A program made the translations under genes and the position numbers. Shown piece after piece: positions 3,395 through 10,458 of a stretch of 10,458 nucleotides of DNA; position 1 is the stretch's first letter; each line of letters begins with the position of its first letter. Source of the stretch: a virus (lineage: Duplodnaviria; Heunggongvirae; Uroviricota; Caudoviricetes). The stretch covers positions 74,237-84,694 of IMG/VR virus record IMGVR_UViG_2974644367_000001. One strand, 5' to 3'. The notes under the pieces are model-generated. The model had not been told where the DNA came from. It did not search any database and worked only from the letters and a program-made list of their open reading frames with translations.

Positions 3395-4060
3395 ATGAAT
3401 ACTCCATTTATCGTTAACGCTAAACAACGTGCTATCCTTGCTGATAACTCTTTCAACCCTTCAATCTCAAAAGAGGGTAAAAACATTCGGGAAGGTGTCA
3501 CGATTCAAAAGTTTCTAAATCGTATGGGTATCTATTGCGAGGGTTTAAACCTTCAATCAGAAATCTATTTAGAAGCCCGTGAGTATTCACAATCGCGGGA
3601 CGTGTACGGCAACCGCACGGCGCATTATTGCGTTACTGTAATGATTGATGATAAAAAGGCTGGCAAATATTATCATCCGTTTGACATCGTGGGAAGTGGT
3701 TCACGCCGTCAACAAGTCGGGTATGGTAAAGATAATGGCGACATTACATACAGCCTTGAAAAGTTGGGTTATCCGGTTGAACTTGTTCAACGTTATGAAG
3801 AGACATCCGGCGCAATCCGTTACACTTACAGATTAAAATCTTTAGAAAATCTTCAAAAGGTTGTTGACGCTGCAAACGGTAACTTGTACTATAGCGCCAC
3901 GGTTGAAGGTTACGAAATCAAAGCGCCGTTATTCAGCTTGATTGAATTGAAGATTAAAAACCTTGTGTCACGGAAACGAGATTCAAGCCGTAAATTTGCG
4001 GTAACTGTTAGCCGTCACAAGGGCGACAAAGTTTCAAAAGTAACACGTTTAAATTACTAA
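3395..4060 (+). CDS. Early hypothetical protein (221 aa)
   Basis: Leader AACCCTAAACAAGGAATAAAATT precedes the ATG; long ORF. Confidence 0.85.
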   Translation: MNTPFIVNAKQRAILADNSFNPSISKEGKNIREGVTIQKFLNRMGIYCEGLNLQSEIYLEAREYSQSRDVYGNRTAHYCVTVMIDDKKAGKYYHPFDIVGSGSRRQQVGYGKDNGDITYSLEKLGYPVELVQRYEETSGAIRYTYRLKSLENLQKVVDAANGNLYYSATVEGYEIKAPLFSLIELKIKNLVSRKRDSSRKFAVTVSRHKGDKVSKVTRLNY

Positions 4061-4061
4061 A

Positions 4062-4116
4062 AAGTGCTTTACATGGTGTTTGTACTTAGATAGTATAAGC
4101 ACCAGATAAAGAGCTT
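4062..4116 (+). promoter_or_regulatory. Type-A hairpin-promoter, copy A1
   Basis: TTTACA (4068-4073)-17-TAGTAT (4091-4096) inside a long imperfect inverted repeat. Confidence 0.8.
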
Positions 4117-4147
4117 TTACAAACAACCCTTATAAAGGAATCAAGAA

Positions 4148-4645
4148 ATGAATGCTACCTTCTCAATCATCAAGCCAACTTTTGAAATCCGTTTCACTGC
4201 TGAAATGTCTGAATGTTGCCCTGCTTTCTTTAGTGACCAGTGGAAACTAACAAACAATCATCAGGGCGGCGTGACTATCAAAAACCCTTTAGCTTGCCGC
4301 AATAGTTATCCTTATGCAATCCCGTTGCAATGCAGCCTTGCACAGCTTACAGCGGAGTATGCAGAACAGGGAAGGGATAACCCATCTAAAGCGGCTTATG
4401 ACAGCTTACAGGCACAATTAAAGCGTGACATTGAAGCGGCTGAATATTTCATTACAGGTGCAATCTTTGACCTTGAAGGAAACGAGGTGATTAATTCTGT
4501 TGCAATGGGTTACGGTTTTGATTACTCTTATCTTGATGAAGAATCATTAGAAGAATCTTTAGAGCGTAACGTAAAAGATTCAGATTGTGAAACGCAAATG
4601 ATTGAAGCCGTTGAAGAGTTCAAGAAAAGAATCTCAAAAATCTAG
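4148..4645 (+). CDS. Early hypothetical protein (165 aa, acidic C-terminal half)
   Basis: CCCTTATAAAGGAA leader; recalled as similar to conserved Felix O1-like early proteins (TNNHQGGVTIKNP), not verified. Confidence 0.85.
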   Translation: MNATFSIIKPTFEIRFTAEMSECCPAFFSDQWKLTNNHQGGVTIKNPLACRNSYPYAIPLQCSLAQLTAEYAEQGRDNPSKAAYDSLQAQLKRDIEAAEYFITGAIFDLEGNEVINSVAMGYGFDYSYLDEESLEESLERNVKDSDCETQMIEAVEEFKKRISKI

Positions 4646-4683
4646 TTGCAAAGGGGTTACGGTTATGAGACTATAACCCCGTC
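4646..4683 (+). promoter_or_regulatory. Type-B hairpin-promoter, copy B1
   Basis: TTGCAA (4646-4651)-17-GACTAT (4669-4674) with extended -10 TG; GGGGTTA/TAACCCC inverted repeat; the -35 starts immediately after the upstream TAG. Confidence 0.75.
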
Positions 4684-4714
4684 GAAACAAACAACCCTTA
4701 TAAAGGAAAAAATA

Positions 4715-4996
4715 ATGAATGTTACTACTTACAATAATCTTCCCCCTGTTATGGATATTACTTTGCGAGAGGGGCACGGAAAGGAAATGCAGTTTACTGA
4801 TTTACGTGCTGAATATAAGCCTTTGTGGTGGCATGATGCCGGACTTTCTAAAACTAAAAGTGGTTACGGAAAAAATATCCCTACGCCGTGGGCTGTCAAT
4901 TGGGCTGGACGTTTGCGCCGTATTTATTCAACTTGTTACGGTAACGCTGCAAGCCTACACATAAACGTAAACGGTAAAAAGATTGCTGTAATGTAA
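4715..4996 (+). CDS. Early hypothetical protein (93 aa)
   Basis: Start reassigned to ATG 4715 (SD AAGGA 4703-4707). The GYGKNIPT..GRLRRIY..CYGN pattern is recalled from widespread phage hypotheticals. Confidence 0.8.
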   Translation: MNVTTYNNLPPVMDITLREGHGKEMQFTDLRAEYKPLWWHDAGLSKTKSGYGKNIPTPWAVNWAGRLRRIYSTCYGNAASLHINVNGKKIAVM

Positions 4997-4999
4997 TAA

Positions 5000-5053
5000 A
5001 GAGCTTTACAGGGTGTTTAGAAGTTTGATAGTCTAAGCACCTGATAAAGAACT
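5000..5053 (+). promoter_or_regulatory. Type-A hairpin-promoter, copy A2
   Basis: TTTACA (5005-5010)-18-TAGTCT (5029-5034), extended -10 TG, same inverted-repeat scaffold. Confidence 0.8.
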
Positions 5054-5084
5054 TTATCAATCAACCCTTATAAAGGAAACTAAC

Positions 5085-5501
5085 ATGATTCTTTCACCGA
5101 AAACTTTTAGCCGTTCACTGGTTGCCTCAAACGATTCTAAAGCTGCTGAAAGATTCAGCGCCCAAGAACTTGTAAAGGTTGCCCGTCAATTCCTTGCAAC
5201 GTTTCCCGCTAATCGTGAGCGTTTTTCAAGTAACGTTTTGAACTTGACAAAATCGGTGGAAAACGTAGAATTCACGCAAGGCGTTATTGCTGAAATTGAC
5301 GACATCATGAAACGCGGTACTAACTATGCGATGAATGAATCTAAAGCGTTTGAATTCGCCGTTAAAACCGTGTTAGTATGTGATTACGGGTTTACTAACA
5401 TCGTTTCACACGGTATCAGTGATGCACTATGGAAAGATGCCGAAAACAGAAAATTTATGCTTGACTTGAAATCTGATTTTCTGGCACAATCTGGTTACTA
5501 A
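5085..5501 (+). CDS. Early hypothetical protein (138 aa)
   Basis: CCCTTATAAAGGAA leader; clean ORF. Confidence 0.85.
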   Translation: MILSPKTFSRSLVASNDSKAAERFSAQELVKVARQFLATFPANRERFSSNVLNLTKSVENVEFTQGVIAEIDDIMKRGTNYAMNESKAFEFAVKTVLVCDYGFTNIVSHGISDALWKDAENRKFMLDLKSDFLAQSGY

Positions 5502-5532
5502 TTTCACTAACTCTTAAACAGGAATAAACATC

Positions 5533-5748
5533 ATGAAAATTTTCTTCTCTTCTCGTTCTGCTATGCGTTCTGCGACTTTTGGTAAAGCAACCGACAACGG
5601 CAAAGAAGCAACTAAACGCTGGTCACGTGACTTTGCAAAGGTTATCCGCGCCAAACGTGTTGAAGTTGTCCAGCAGGTTAACAGCGTGACAGGCAAAGTC
5701 AAACCTGTTAAAGTGACTTTCCGTAAATCTCGCAAAGTGGCGGCATAA
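5533..5748 (+). CDS. Small, highly basic protein (71 aa)
   Basis: CTTAAACAGGAA leader; 19 K+R versus 4 D+E. Confidence 0.8.
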   Translation: MKIFFSSRSAMRSATFGKATDNGKEATKRWSRDFAKVIRAKRVEVVQQVNSVTGKVKPVKVTFRKSRKVAA

Positions 5749-5749
5749 C

Positions 5750-6085
5750 GTGACACAATCAACGGTAAATTATCTTATGGGGGGCGGCCTTGCCGCTCTT
5801 ACAGTGGGCGGGTTTTACTTGTTCAACCTCATCAAAGAGGTTAAGCAGGTAGACGCAAACAAAGGGGCTGTTAAATCGTTTTTAGACGGCCTTACAGCGG
5901 CGCAAACGTCTTTGTTGATGTCGTCTATTACTCACGGTCACAACTTTGCAGGGGACTTTATAGCGGCCTTAAATGACGCTCAAAAATACCAGTATTCGGG
6001 CTTGCTTTCTGTCATTGGTTCGGGTACATTAAAGCCATATTACAGTGAGATTGTAGAATCTCATCGGGAAAAGGTAAGAGGTTAA
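5750..6085 (+). CDS. Putative membrane-anchored protein (111 aa; start uncertain)
   Basis: GTG 1 nt after the upstream stop (alternative ATG 5777); hydrophobic segment LMGGGLAALTVGGFYLFNLI; weak SD. Confidence 0.7.
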   Translation: MTQSTVNYLMGGGLAALTVGGFYLFNLIKEVKQVDANKGAVKSFLDGLTAAQTSLLMSSITHGHNFAGDFIAALNDAQKYQYSGLLSVIGSGTLKPYYSEIVESHREKVRG

Positions 6086-6087
6086 AA

Positions 6088-6213
6088 ATGATTGGTCTGA
6101 TTATCGTTTTAGGCGCTATCGGTATTTTTGCTTTACGTGTTATCGGTGAATGTGTCGGATTAATCAGACCTTTCGAAGATGTTTTAGCCGAACGTGAAAA
6201 ACTTAAAAAGTAA
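6088..6213 (+). CDS. Small membrane protein (41 aa, absent from the ORF track)
   Basis: SD AAGAGG then ATG 6088; MIGLIIVLGAIGIFALRVIGECVGLIRPFEDVLAEREKLKK; exactly fills the gap between two genes. Confidence 0.7.
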   Translation: MIGLIIVLGAIGIFALRVIGECVGLIRPFEDVLAEREKLKK

Positions 6214-6227
6214 AAAGGGGCTTGAAA

Positions 6228-6461
6228 ATGGAAAGTGTAGCGGGTATATTGTTTGTCGTAATGTGTATTGCTGTTGTTTTGTGGTTGGCGTTACTGCCTG
6301 CAATCATAGCCAACAAGAAAGAAAGCACGAACAAAGGTTTTATAATCGGCTTAACAATCGTCGGATTATTTTTCTTTCCGTGCTGGATTATTGCTCTGAT
6401 TTGGGCTATTGTGGATTCATCAAGCCAGCCGCAAAAGGTTATTTTAGTAAAAGAGGTTTAA
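6228..6461 (+). CDS. imm: Superinfection immunity protein, T4 Imm-like
   Basis: Hydrophobic 77-aa protein with LPAIIA-NKK...IGLTIVGLFFFPCWIIALIWA, matching the recalled Imm pattern (LPxIIA...W..ALIWA); SD AAGGGG 7 nt before ATG 6228. Confidence 0.75.
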   Translation: MESVAGILFVVMCIAVVLWLALLPAIIANKKESTNKGFIIGLTIVGLFFFPCWIIALIWAIVDSSSQPQKVILVKEV

Positions 6462-6516
6462 AAGTGCTTTACAAGGTGTTTATAGTTAGTTACCATAAGC
6501 ACCAGATAAAGAGCTT
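6462..6516 (+). promoter_or_regulatory. Type-A hairpin-promoter, copy A3
   Basis: TTTACA (6468-6473)-17-TACCAT (6491-6496); same scaffold. Confidence 0.8.
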
Positions 6517-6547
6517 TTCAAAACAACCCTCAAAGAGGAATAAAATT

Positions 6548-7135
6548 ATGTTATGCGTCCACGGTACAACTTTAGAAAACTTCAAAATGATGATTGCCGG
6601 AGAAGGCAAGCCGTCCGGTGCATGGAACGTGTCAGAATGTGACGCCGCAACCTATTTCTACCCGCTTGATAAAATCGCTAAAGCTGAATGTCTTGAACTC
6701 TCTGATTTTGACGATGAGGCAGATTATCAGGCCGCTATCCTTGAAGCTGCAAAACGCCACGCAAGAGGAAACGCCACGACAACGGCGGCAATCCTTGAAC
6801 GTGATGCTAAACTGATTATTTTTCTTGCTGATGTTCCCGATTGCCTATTAGAGGATGATTATTCTTGTGATAACATGGCCGATATTGCCTCTTTCATTCA
6901 TGAAGATGATTTTAAGGTTGAAATGATTCTTAAAATCTGGCAGTATGAGTTTTTCGGAATCTTTAGCCCGTATTGTGTGCAACCTGATAACCCTTACACG
7001 GCGACAATGAGTTATCACCTTGAACAAATGGCAAGGGCTATCCAGAATTCAAACGCTTATCTTTATGATACTATTGAAGAGTCATTAGATGAGAGTGAAC
7101 AAGAAAAAGATTTAGATTTTCTGATTAACATCTAA
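6548..7135 (+). CDS. Acidic early protein (195 aa) with an N-terminal HGT motif; possible ADP-ribosyltransferase-like fold
   Basis: Start reassigned to ATG 6548 (SD GAGGA after A3); 38 D+E versus 13 K+R. The CDS is well supported; the fold is speculative. Confidence 0.8.
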   Translation: MLCVHGTTLENFKMMIAGEGKPSGAWNVSECDAATYFYPLDKIAKAECLELSDFDDEADYQAAILEAAKRHARGNATTTAAILERDAKLIIFLADVPDCLLEDDYSCDNMADIASFIHEDDFKVEMILKIWQYEFFGIFSPYCVQPDNPYTATMSYHLEQMARAIQNSNAYLYDTIEESLDESEQEKDLDFLINI

Positions 7136-7142
7136 AAAGAGC

Positions 7143-7180
7143 TTTACAGGGGGTTACGGTTATGAGACTATAACCCCGTC
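7143..7180 (+). promoter_or_regulatory. Type-B hairpin-promoter, copy B2 (A-type upstream half)
   Basis: TTTACA (7143-7148)-17-GACTAT (7166-7171); 31-bp core identical to B1 and B3. Confidence 0.78.
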
Positions 7181-7213
7181 GAAACAAACAACCCCTTATA
7201 AAGGAATCAAAAC

Positions 7214-7540
7214 ATGTTACACATTGCCCACATGCAAAACTACCGTTCACGCACTGCATCAGTAAAACGTTATGGCAAATTTAAAGCGATGCGTTTTGAA
7301 TGGGCTTGCTATCGTAAATTCCTGAATTTTGACCGCTCAAAGTTTGTTGTACACTCTCAACCGCTGGATAATCGCAAGTTAGAAGCCCTTGCCCGTCACG
7401 CTGGCTTAATCCTTGCAAAACACGGTCAAGACGTTGCAAGCGACTTTGTAAACCGTTGTTTTACCGCTTTACCGTATACCAATAATCTAACGGTTGGCCT
7501 GTTTATTGAACGTGTTGAATTCTTCGCAACAACACACTAA
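7214..7540 (+). CDS. Early hypothetical protein (108 aa)
   Basis: CCTTATAAAGGAA leader; YRSRTASVKR and GLFIERVE recalled from Felix O1-like early proteins (unverified). Confidence 0.85.
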   Translation: MLHIAHMQNYRSRTASVKRYGKFKAMRFEWACYRKFLNFDRSKFVVHSQPLDNRKLEALARHAGLILAKHGQDVASDFVNRCFTALPYTNNLTVGLFIERVEFFATTH

Positions 7541-7546
7541 AAAGCA

Positions 7547-7584
7547 TTGCAAAGGGGTTACGGTTATGAGACTATAACCCCGTC
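7547..7584 (+). promoter_or_regulatory. Type-B hairpin-promoter, copy B3
   Basis: TTGCAA (7547-7552)-17-GACTAT (7570-7575). Confidence 0.75.
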
Positions 7585-7613
7585 AAAAGAAAACCTTAAA
7601 CAGGAATCAAAAC

Positions 7614-7859
7614 ATGTTAAATCATCAAAGCGGTATCGTTTCCCTTGAAAGTGGTCAAGAAATCACTCTGGCAAAACTGCAAGAAATCTATCTTGACTGG
7701 ATTAATAATTTCTTGACTGTTGAACGTTTCGCAGAATATTACGCTTTAGAAGTTGATGAAGCGCAAATAATCATTCAAGCGGGGCATAAGGTGCAAGGGC
7801 TTTACTCTGGAATGTTAAAAGAGCTTCAAGCCAGCGCATTAAAAGCACTTCAAGACTAA
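7614..7859 (+). CDS. Early hypothetical protein (81 aa)
   Basis: CCTTAAACAGGAA leader; YLDWINNFLTVERFAEYY recalled as a common small phage family. Confidence 0.85.
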   Translation: MLNHQSGIVSLESGQEITLAKLQEIYLDWINNFLTVERFAEYYALEVDEAQIIIQAGHKVQGLYSGMLKELQASALKALQD

Positions 7860-7860
7860 A

Positions 7861-7916
7861 AAGAGCTTTACAAGGTGTTTAGATGTTTGATAATCTAAGC
7901 ACCTGATAAAGAGCTT
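7861..7916 (+). promoter_or_regulatory. Type-A hairpin-promoter, copy A4
   Basis: TTTACA (7867-7872)-18-TAATCT (7891-7896), extended -10 TG; 19 of 23 symmetric positions pair. Confidence 0.82.
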
Positions 7917-7936
7917 TCTTAAAAAGGTGAAAACGC

Positions 7937-8215
7937 ATGAAAATGACAGATTCAGAACAGAAAACTGTTCAACGTCTAATGAAAGATTTAGGCTTTACCA
8001 CTATGACCGCCACAAAACAACCCGTTATGGAATGGTACAACGGCGTAATAGATGCAAAGGAAAAGATTGTAAACCTCTGGCGCTTCAATGGTGAATTGCA
8101 ATTTGAAGTTTACGACAACACAAACAAAAGCCCTACAAAGTCAACTAAAGATTTAGAACAATCTTACACGATTTGGGCAAACGGTCATTTTATCATCAAT
8201 CCGAAAAAGGTGTAA
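7937..8215 (+). CDS. Early hypothetical protein (92 aa)
   Basis: SD AAGGTG 7 nt upstream, directly behind A4. Confidence 0.8.
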   Translation: MKMTDSEQKTVQRLMKDLGFTTMTATKQPVMEWYNGVIDAKEKIVNLWRFNGELQFEVYDNTNKSPTKSTKDLEQSYTIWANGHFIINPKKV

Positions 8216-8477: not shown

Positions 8478-8499
8478 AGGGGCTTTACAGCCCCTTTTT
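8478..8499 (+). terminator. Rho-independent terminator overlapping the next promoter
   Basis: AGGGGC-TTTACA-GCCCCT followed by TTTT. Confidence 0.8.
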
Positions 8500-8513
8500 C
8501 GTTTTGCTATACT
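8484..8513 (+). promoter_or_regulatory. Sigma70 promoter
   Basis: TTTACA (8484-8489)-18-TATACT (8508-8513) with extended -10 TG. Confidence 0.82.
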
Positions 8514-8566: not shown

Positions 8567-9139
8567 ATGAAAAAGTCAATCGCAATCAACCTTATCCGCT
8601 CTTCTTCTGTAATGACCCGTATCAACAAAGAAAGCTGGACTTTTCAGACCTCTTTTAGCGGTGAATTCGCAGTAATCAACAAGGCTTCAAATGGTGTCTA
8701 TTTCGTCCACACTAAAGGCAACAAGGCAACCACACACAAAACCTTTATGGCGGCTGTTGCGTCCATCCTTGACCTGTATTTAGAAATCATTCATGATTCT
8801 ATGCGCCGTAAGATTCAGGAGCTTAAAAGCCGTTACAACTCCTTAGAACTGATGCGCTACACTCACAAAGATAACCTTAATCGTTTTGTTATCGCTGATG
8901 AAGTTTTAGACATCATGCAGGGTGAAAATGGTGAAATTGTGACCGACATTTTAAAGGGTAACTTTGCAACGTATCGCACTGAATTAGCCGCTAAAGCCGC
9001 CATGAAACATCGTTTTGTGTCTGCTGCTTACACACTTGAAAGTGTTATTGAAAGGATGAGTAAAGCAACGTTTAAGACGCTCACACTATTACAAGCCAAC
9101 TTACCAGAATCTTTCAAAGTAACCACTTTCGACGCTTGA
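8567..9139 (+). CDS. Early hypothetical protein (190 aa)
   Basis: CCTTAAACAGGAA leader; clean ORF. Confidence 0.85.
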   Translation: MKKSIAINLIRSSSVMTRINKESWTFQTSFSGEFAVINKASNGVYFVHTKGNKATTHKTFMAAVASILDLYLEIIHDSMRRKIQELKSRYNSLELMRYTHKDNLNRFVIADEVLDIMQGENGEIVTDILKGNFATYRTELAAKAAMKHRFVSAAYTLESVIERMSKATFKTLTLLQANLPESFKVTTFDA

Positions 9140-9170
9140 CAGGTAACATCAAAGGGGGTTAAAATCCCCC
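9136..9170 (+). promoter_or_regulatory. Sigma70 promoter with GGGGG/CCCCC flanking the -10
   Basis: TTGACA (9136-9141, contains the upstream TGA stop)-18-TAAAAT (9160-9165); +1 about 9172 (ATCAAACAA). Confidence 0.75.
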
Positions 9171-9204
9171 TATCAAACAAAAACCTTAAACAGGAACAAA
9201 CAAA

Positions 9205-9447: not shown

Positions 9448-9469
9448 TCAGTAACTTATCAAATAGCCC

Positions 9470-9498
9470 TTGACATTCCACTTGACAGGGGCTAAAGT
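9470..9498 (+). promoter_or_regulatory. Sigma70-type promoter facing the ORF-less region
   Basis: TTGACA (9470-9475)-17-TAAAGT (9493-9498), overlapped by a 9-bp stem (9464-9472 / 9486-9494). Confidence 0.6.
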
Positions 9499-9592
9499 GT
9501 TTTAAGGGTTTTCTCTTAATCCACCCTTTCTATATTCTGTATTCCTCTCTTTAAAGACTCTTTACCATTCCTTTGATTATCGTCTAATTGTC

Positions 9593-9891
9593 TTCTAAAC
9601 AGCATTCTAAGCCGTTAACACTGGCATATAGTCCCGCTATAGTGATTCTTCTAAACAGTCTTCTAAACCGTTCCACTCCTTCCCTAACAGTGGGAACCCC
9701 ACAGGGAACCAGATTAGACAGTCTTCTATAACCCTTCTAAATCGCATTCTAAGCGTTTCTAAGTCTACCCCTTACGATTGGGTTAGTAACCCTTCTAAGT
9801 CTCTTCTAAGAGCATTCTACGGCCTCATTAAATGATTGCTTTCACACTTGCTTTCTGTTAGTCTTCTAAGCCCCTTCTAAGAGTCTTCTAC
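9593..9891 (+). repeat. Helically phased TTCTA(A) array
   Basis: 14 copies at 9593, 9605; 9649, 9661; 9724, 9735, 9747, 9757; 9793, 9804, 9815; 9864, 9875, 9886 (10-12 bp steps within clusters). Confidence 0.88.
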
Positions 9892-10034
9892 GATGAATCA
9901 CTATCATTGATTGTTGGTTGTTGGAGTCTTCAAAACGTCTTATTGTTGGCTTGTCAGACTCTTAAAAGATGGGTTAAGATACTGGACAAAACACTGTCAA
10001 TATTTACGCTATGGTTAGCCACTTTTACATTTCG

Positions 10035-10437
10035 TTAACAACTTTTTAACATCTCTGCAACATTCTATTCAGTCATCTGCATAACATCTTGACAACATTC
10101 TATTAACATTCCTGTTACAACTCTTTAACGATTCTTTAACACGGTCATGTTAAGAGTCTGTTACAACCCTGTTAAAATTTCTCGATACAAATTAACATTT
10201 CGATAACATGGTGATTCAACTGTAAAGCCATTTGTCAAGTCTAATAAATTCTCTTCAAACCCTTGACAATCCTGATTAGTTGAGTTGTTAAGACCCTGTT
10301 AAAATCCTGTTAAGATTGTTAAAGAGAATGGGTAAATGTTAACGGATTAGATGAATTGTTAAGAGCTTTGGAGAGTTGTTAAGAGACTGTTAAGAGAATG
10401 TTGCAGATATGTTAAGATTTTGCAAAGGAACGGTTAA
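10035..10437. repeat. 11-bp-phased TTAACA / TGTTAA arrays in inverted arrangement
   Basis: TTAACA-like at 10035, 10046, 10057, 10081-10136 (six at exact 11-bp steps), 10192, 10203; TGTTAA-like at 10148, 10159, 10170, 10286, 10297, 10308, 10317, 10337, 10357, 10377, 10388, 10399, 10410, 10432. Confidence 0.9.
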
Positions 10438-10458
10438 CTTCTGAGAAGCGGCCACTAA

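Follow-up and report, generated by a model that had tools for sequence, protein, structure and literature searches.

The closest described counterparts of the element studied here are the promoter-early stem-loop (PeSL) cassettes of the T4-like phages RB49/phi1, PST and nt-1 (PMC2839356, PMC4122927). The RB49 PeSL stems have 7-8 bp and lie within the promoter spacer, around the -10 or 3' of the -10. A second point of comparison is offered by the early RNase III sites of T7 (R0.3, R0.5, R1, R1.1 and R1.3), hairpins of two helical turns that lie between genes and have an internal loop at their centre. Moreover, the repeat itself has been recorded before. A 57-bp direct repeat was reported in Felix O1 (PMC3185647), and the features DR_1, DR_7 and DR_9 of phage wV8 (EU877232) correspond to the same element; both records list direct repeats only and assign no promoter, hairpin or function to them. 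In the wV8 record, one of the copies carries a terminator annotation, placed on the opposite strand. Felix O1-like phages have found wide use in biocontrol; how their transcription is regulated is unknown according to the Felix O1 genome paper (PMC3185647). In our literature search, no paper linking Ounavirinae with PeSLs was found.

The window, i.e. the whole stretch of 10,458 nt that was analysed, belongs to the 84.7-kb genome of a Felix O1-like phage, a Kolesnikvirus (Ounavirinae, Erwinia phage). Its early gene cluster contains four hairpins of 58-62 nt, here called type A, each overlapping a sigma70 promoter, and the genome contains no further copy. The first copy, A1 (4060..4118, + strand), is a two-tier hairpin with a lower stem of about 11 bp, an upper stem of 13 bp and a CA/GA internal loop at 4072-73/4105-06. 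Its first base (4060) is shared with the stop codon of the upstream gene, and its promoter consists of a -35 at 4068-4073 and a -10 at 4091-4096, with a 17-nt spacer. The other copies, all on the + strand, are A2 (4996..5057; -35 at 5005-5010, -10 at 5029-5034, 18-nt spacer), A3 (6460..6518; -35 at 6468-6473, -10 at 6491-6496) and A4 (7860..7917; -35 at 7867-7872, -10 at 7891-7896, 18-nt spacer). A4 has a second possible -10 at 7889-7894, and its leader is shorter than that of the other copies and unlike it. A leader with a Shine-Dalgarno sequence follows A1 (4119..4147, +) and recurs after A2, A3 and promoters that are not of type A. The ORFs behind the four copies, all on the + strand and of unknown function, are located at 4148..4645 (165 aa, phrog_4190), 5085..5501 (138 aa, phrog_25466), 6548..7135 (195 aa, phrog_3303) and 7937..8215 (92 aa, phrog_4401).

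A previous reading of the window, based on the sequence only, had described four copies of a common stem. This description was confirmed, even if the extents given were slightly short, and so were the U-G pair in the upper stem of all copies and the pairing of most of the A1 -10 (five of its six bases). The internal loop had been taken as a fixed 2x2 CA/GA loop, which holds for three copies; A3, like the family consensus, has a 3x3 loop. The predicted folding energies of the + strand RNA were -27.6, -23.7, -20.6 and -25.7 kcal/mol for A1 to A4, with z values from -5.1 to -6.6 and no equally good fold among 200 shuffles. The - strand also folds (z from -2.5 to -5.4), and among 125 family variants the + strand is more stable in 90, by a margin of only about 1.8 kcal/mol; for this reason, it is the wobbles and the orientation of the genes, rather than energy, that argue for a preferred strand. 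No terminator-type U-tract follows the stem in any of the four copies, as already noted from the sequence, and the element therefore does not have the GC-rich stem with an immediate U-tract of an intrinsic terminator.

Variants of the element were collected from related phages, giving a clean set of 97 rows, all distinct, from four Ounavirinae genera, and a larger set of 125 rows that includes about 3-4 strays. Outside Ounavirinae no convincing relative was found, looser patterns returning unrelated single hits, and a covariance model gave no match in T7 or in 11 kb of Pectobacterium phage Wc4. In the larger set, a TTTACA -35 and a TAnnnT -10 are separated by 17 nt (109 variants) or 18 nt (9 variants), so that promoter pattern and spacing are preserved in 118 of the 125. 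The type-A copies are almost certainly early promoters for the host sigma70, as judged from this pattern.

Several features of the family indicate that the hairpin, too, is maintained. In the family alignment 95.2% of cells are paired, and RNAalifold recovered identical stems unaided. Covariation was 0.120, as compared to 0.063 after shuffling and at most 0.025 after sliding. Clear compensatory swaps of G-C to U-A were found at two pairs of columns, 7/58 (13 rows) and 20/45 (12 rows). Ten of the 19 pairs are invariant, some of them fixed through the search pattern used. The earlier reading had chosen another position as its example of covariation, and the pairs it gave are correct (U-A at 4074/4104, G-U at 5011/5042, A-U at 7873/7904, mismatch in A3); however, this position is paired in only 45 of the 97 variants and was discarded as evidence. 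At helix positions, the frequent wobble types on the transcribed strand are six G-U and no A-C, compared with 16 and 16 among pattern-matched random hits. The asymmetry is valid for helix positions only, since the frequent types become 7 to 4 when loop-edge positions are included. This G-U excess on the transcribed strand favours an RNA structure. Thus, the compensatory changes and the G-U bias of the family, though not the position first highlighted, support the proposed dual use as a DNA promoter and a structure of read-through RNA, and on these sequence comparisons it is likely that the type-A hairpin has been selected as RNA structure.

The same symmetry might be a by-product of template switching at quasi-palindromes and of gene conversion, which mimic covariation, with only promoter and leader under selection. 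Independent compensatory events are in fact few (two clear ones), the copies recombine with one another, much of the invariance is explained by promoter constraints, and every wobble is a transition, the commonest class of mutation. Template switching, on the other hand, should erase the loop, the mismatch at -7 and the wobbles, all of which are retained across the four genera. Furthermore, at the free positions of the spacer, variation is confined to bases compatible with pairing (C or U facing G, 95 of 97 variants). We therefore regard this explanation as improbable. Equally improbable, in our view, is a role of the symmetry in DNA, either as paired operators flanking the promoter for a dimeric repressor of early genes or through cruciform extrusion. 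Either arm taken alone is a 10-bp palindrome, and of the 11 occurrences of this palindrome in the genome, 8 fall in type-A arms and 1 in a mosaic cassette. The sequence of the 3' arm is conserved even where it is unpaired. Nevertheless, 13 of the 97 variants have lost both arm palindromes and restored the pairing between the arms, and a cruciform would need both strands, whereas the wobbles favour one. As to the 3' arm, efficient initially transcribed sequences are purine-rich as well.

The probably selected RNA structure belongs to a unit that closely resembles a PeSL cassette. Type A is an intergenic unit that recurs in a hyperplastic region whose small ORFs are of unknown function. As in PeSLs, a stop codon is followed by an AT-rich tract, a sigma70-like -35/-10 (as a sequence pattern), a stem-loop, a Shine-Dalgarno sequence and, at the 3' end, a start codon; the stem-loop is of the G-tract/C-tract type with G-T pairs and overlaps the promoter. 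Type A differs from the RB49 cassettes in an additional 11-bp lower stem, in which the -35/UP region pairs with the leader to give about 22-25 bp in total, and which is absent from the RB49 PeSLs folded here. The likeness to RB49 is one of architecture. The type-A copies are best explained as PeSL-like intergenic cassettes with a dual use, a variant of a known cassette type. The motif had been suggested to be uncatalogued, which is true as far as Rfam is concerned (no match near the gathering score), but the repeat was on record in Felix O1 and wV8 and the cassette type is known. Neither the connection with PeSLs nor a role in gene exchange had been seen in the sequence-only reading.

The hairpin might act as a plain PeSL-type RNA barrier that does not involve RNase III, pausing or attenuating read-through transcription, or blocking 3' exonucleases and so stabilising the upstream mRNA. 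Covariation and G-U bias are compatible with any RNA structure, and the reduction of lacZ expression by one RB49 PeSL stem-loop equalled that by rrnB T1 (PMC2839356). Nearly all the cassettes of the cluster have a G-tract/C-tract hairpin of some sort, and the terminator label in wV8, though on the opposite strand, points the same way. The missing U-tract speaks against a barrier, which also does not account for the AU-rich 11-bp lower stem kept by compensatory change, because RB49 PeSLs and type-B cassettes manage without one. Type-B cassettes (4646..4680, +, and others near 7143 and 7547) consist of a promoter and a short G-tract/C-tract upper stem. A barrier of this kind is possible, but we consider it rather unlikely.

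The lower stem is where a resemblance to RNase III substrates was found. The boxes of this enzyme consist of a proximal box (G-C, W, A-U, W) and a distal box (U-A, then U-G) (PMC1540722). A box scan, which ranked the known T7 R1.1 site best with 5 of 6 positions, gave 6 of 6 at the loop register (that of R1.1) in all four copies and in 93 of the 97 variants. The putative half-site of A1 comprises 4061..4072 on the 5' strand and 4106-4117 as its partner (+ strand). The proximal box is matched in the four copies and in 95 of 97 variants; in the distal box, the first pair is matched in 96 of 97, and the second is the canonical U-G in 11 of 97 and U-A in the remainder, a position at which substitutions in a minimal substrate cost at least 5-fold. 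The lower stem has 11-12 positions, including one mismatch and one wobble, its weak pairs being limited to -7 and -8, between the boxes; with an upper stem of 8-13 bp, the hairpin attains about two helical turns, and one side of the predicted cut has 11 bp or more. The lower stem being palindromic, a second 6/6 register points at the stem base. The -35 of type A is never TTG, although TTG is present in 39 of the 46 other promoters of the cluster and would turn box position 4 into a G-C pair, which is inhibitory. A compensated TTG variant was sought across the family and not found. Four of the six box positions are expected free from the A-tract/-35 context, and 3 of the 46 other promoters could reach 6/6 if paired; the match is therefore worth about tenfold, no more. 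All type-A copies share one ancestor, which also limits its weight.

Other features are contrary to cleavage. At sites that are double-cut in vivo, the two central positions are paired (about 90%, mostly G-C) and D and D' are A-U (PMC6212723), whereas type A has C-A at one central position and G-C at D', an antideterminant in the upper half. Therefore, a single nick at most is expected. The stem adjoins the upstream stop codon, and terminating ribosomes could melt it. Processing by RNase III, one of the functions first proposed, thus agrees with the boxes at the loop register and disagrees with the centre of the site, and on balance we tentatively put the most likely role of the type-A hairpin, that of a host RNase III processing site, at slightly less than an even chance. 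Alternatively, the hairpin could be bound and left uncut, by RNase III itself or by a phage protein recognising the invariant CA/GA loop. Good binding boxes combined with the mismatch in the centre and the antideterminant above it would fit this, as would loop bases that do not vary among the 97 variants, and non-catalytic RNase III complexes have been described (PMC8708148); yet a central loop does not prevent nicking at T7 sites (PMC8708148) and no candidate protein was identified, so that we give binding without cutting very little credence.

In the T7 sites the box bases are like those of type A and in register, and, as in type A, the lower stems of R1, R1.1 and R1.3 share sequence with a promoter (C, phi1.1A and phi1.3, respectively). 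Unlike type A, however, the T7 sites do not recur as promoter cassettes. In addition, their good half-site is the upper stem, the nick falls in the 3' arm and the hairpin stays on the upstream RNA, while in type A the good half-site appears to be the lower stem, and the hairpin would pass to the downstream RNA. A lower stem with an RNase III-like half-site would also be what is new with respect to the RB49 PeSLs folded here.

No phage-encoded RNase III was found. With the enzyme of the host, the following scheme can be proposed. In DNA, each copy would be the sigma70 promoter that drives the next small gene (the pattern is observed, activity presumed), and it is a homology block for recombinational loss and gain of genes, as comparison of relatives shows. 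In read-through RNA from upstream promoters, the promoter region and the first ~15 leader bases would form the two-turn hairpin, a structure that covariation supports. The lower stem would present an optimal proximal and a near-optimal distal box, and the enzyme would therefore nick the 5' arm at the internal loop, at 4072^4073 in A1 (possibly also at 4107^4108) and at 5009^5010, 6472^6473 and 7871^7872 in A2, A3 and A4, as predicted by the box scan. Long early transcripts would be divided into gene-sized pieces, the downstream piece gaining a protective 5' hairpin and the upstream one being left with an exposed 3' end. The A-tract and -35 of the cassette would then be one strand of an RNase III helix, and each mobile module, subfamily-wide, would have its promoter, a recombination site, a processing site inverted with respect to T7 and a 5' hairpin stabilising the downstream mRNA while the upstream mRNA is stripped of protection; we hold this complete picture with less confidence than processing as such. 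If the RNase III reading is true, a post-transcriptional mechanism would let shuffled early genes be expressed independently of position, PeSLs would be extended from promoter/terminator to promoter/processing cassettes, and the cut sites are predicted to the single base. If it is false, type A is an otherwise ordinary PeSL-like cassette that still contains a compact, well-conserved RNA motif worthy of a curated family.

The role in gene exchange can be considered with greater confidence. Genes are gained and lost at type-A units, as at PeSLs. In fact, 107 elements at 22 loci gave 24 combinations of upstream and downstream gene families, with nested deletions, and the comparison of relatives showed genes lost precisely between cassette copies. 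From these comparisons, the type-A repeat is very probably a recombination point for the loss and gain of genes. Joints at cassettes were also present in contigs assembled from public RNA libraries, which were searched with a Felixounavirus locus because this genus has been sequenced more often and which may include DNA; their interpretation as mini-circles was not accepted, and they are accounted for by the different gene orders of related phages.

The type-A element is a real, conserved element, present in four copies, A1 to A4, at 4060-4118, 4996-5057, 6460-6518 and 7860-7917 (+ strand) and nowhere else in the whole 84.7-kb genome. Folded as + strand RNA, the four copies gave z values from -5.1 to -6.6. 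In each, a lower stem 11-12 positions long is separated by a CA/GA loop from an upper stem of 8-13 bp; the - strand also folds, less well than the +. Each copy directly adjoins the upstream stop codon or overlaps it, and contains a TTTACA -35 and a TAnnnT -10 box, 17-18 nt apart, with the -10 in the terminal loop or at the top of the upper stem. The coordinates and base pairs proposed for these copies in a sequence-only reading were correct, as was its statement that no U-tract follows the stems, which is true of all four. On the basis of the -10 spacing, an active A1 promoter should start transcription near 4104, inside the 3' arm, and therefore the full hairpin would form only in read-through RNA coming from upstream. 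Promoter-like sites precede A1 at 2942, 3323 and 3864, and no terminator-like site was found between them and A1.

A1 matches about 285 phage records, Ounavirinae nearly throughout, and 97 distinct type-A variants were taken from Kolesnikvirus, Felixounavirus, Mooglevirus and Suspvirus loci. In 76 aligned rows, 95.2% of cells are paired, and two clear compensatory G-C to U-A swaps were observed, one in the lower stem (13 rows) and one in the upper stem (12 rows). RNAalifold recovered both stems, with a 3x3 loop, and the loop-proximal pairs vary among U-A, A-U, G-C and U-G. The covariation score was 0.120. Shuffles, which take no account of relatedness among rows, gave 0.063, and slid registers never exceeded 0.025. 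Since, in addition, 10 of the 19 pairs are invariant and the extraction pattern itself dictated three pairs of the upper stem, this support is good but not overwhelming. The position previously put forward as the showcase of covariation (4074/4104 and its equivalents) did not hold up, as it pairs in just 45 of the 97 variants, and is better explained as a start-site purine opposite a free spacer base. A decayed copy at locus L049 (5448-5500) has an altered -35, has lost the 3' lower arm and partly retains the upper stem.

Frequent one-sided changes within the helices, read on the + strand, create G-U wobbles at six position-types and no A-C (16 and 16 in random pattern matches), and one column switches among C-G, U-G and U-A, never C-A (97 variants). 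Because of this wobble bias and because all early-cluster genes lie on the + strand, an RNA structure is the simplest reading. A DNA operator or cruciform would agree with palindromes being confined to the cassettes, but the compensation between arms speaks against it, and we regard it as unlikely.

The lower stem was compared with the RNase III boxes that Pertzev and Nicholson described for the E. coli enzyme (PMC1540722), by a scan that picked the known R1.1 site out of real T7 sequence. In the register placing the cut within the CA/GA loop, all six box positions agree in 4/4 copies and in 93 of the 97 variants, while a random perfect genome helix reaches 6/6 at 0.3% per register. In every type-A copy the -35 begins with TTT; 39 of 46 other cluster promoters have TTG there, which would turn box position 4 into an inhibitory G-C. 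However, four box positions are supplied free by the promoter context, and 3 of the 46 other promoters would reach 6/6 if paired. The lower stem keeps its box positions intact, with two weak positions between the boxes. Being palindromic, it offers a second register facing the stem base, which family variation harms, leaving the loop-facing one unharmed. The canonical distal box occurs in just 11 of the 97 variants. The phage encodes no RNase III gene, and host RNase III would nick at 4072^4073 and at the equivalent sites, so that the downstream mRNA would begin with a hairpin and the upstream mRNA would be left unprotected. Sites that are cut twice in vivo have a paired centre, and their D and D' positions are A-U (PMC6212723); type A departs from this pattern, so a T7-like single nick is at most to be expected (PMC8708148). 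We hold nicking by the host enzyme to be somewhat short of an even bet; a plain RNA barrier or attenuator is less probable, a symmetry that is a mere by-product is improbable, and a hairpin that is bound and not cut is very improbable. The RNase III prediction is specific and cheap to test. The same RNase III-like lower stem was seen in a long, near-perfect hairpin of an unrelated viral contig (L214, 10118-10180).

PeSLs, the promoter-early stem-loop cassettes of T4-like phages, comprise a stop codon, an AT-rich tract, a sigma70 promoter, a stem-loop with G-T pairs, a Shine-Dalgarno sequence and a start codon; the stem-loop often lies between the promoter boxes or overlaps the -10, and the cassettes serve as gene-shuffling points (PMC2839356, PMC4122927). 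All these defining features are present in type A. The PeSLs of RB49 have an upper stem alone (7-8 bp), as do the type-B cassettes of the window, whereas type A has an added lower stem. Type A is thus a PeSL variant distinguished by its lower stem; the repeat was already listed, with no function, in Felix O1 and wV8, and the new part is the specific RNase III prediction. Gene loss across relatives falls precisely between type-A copies: the order F8-F2-F4-F1-F5 is shortened to F8|F1 in Felix O1, to F2|F1 in the window and to F8|F6 or F2|F6 in other phages. A mosaic cassette at 7135-7180, in which a type-A 5' arm and -35 are fused to a type-B upper stem and the 3' lower arm is missing, suggests recombination at the -35; in phiEa21-4 the tract upstream of the equivalent site differs. 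A second Felixounavirus cassette class (L188, 2136-4240; L007, 6160) carries a G-rich/C-rich hairpin just past the start site, and appears to obtain directly the 5' hairpin that type A would gain through a nick. Its hairpin and leader closely resemble in sequence one RB49 PeSL (L216, near 6322), possibly through true homology.

Hairpins overlap other promoters of the window as well: a terminator with the next -35 in its loop (8478-8513), a stem caging a -10 (9136-9171) and a stem holding a -35 (9458-9498). In the shared leader (4126-4140, 5063-5077, 6526-6537 and other leaders) the Shine-Dalgarno sequence is covered by a weak hairpin of 4 bp, which is kept with differing loops and is a possible translational control site.

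The window covers the early, hyperplastic gene cluster of a phage in the genus Kolesnikvirus (Ounavirinae) and shares 99.6% identity with Erwinia phage Coenus and 85.7% with phiEa21-4. Function is unknown for nearly all of its genes; ORF 6548-7135 (+) corresponds to PHROG 3303 (function unknown) and had no Pfam match, and a macrodomain-type gene lies at 1765-2547. The non-coding gap ahead of the cluster contains four 35-nt direct repeats (2595-2742, spacing 37-39 nt), perhaps protein-binding or origin-related. The 84.7-kb record ends with the window, whose non-coding stretch 9590-10458, dense in short repeats of 11-nt period and with long imperfect inverted repeats (10024-10124 with 10372-10437), is probably a genome terminus or packaging region.
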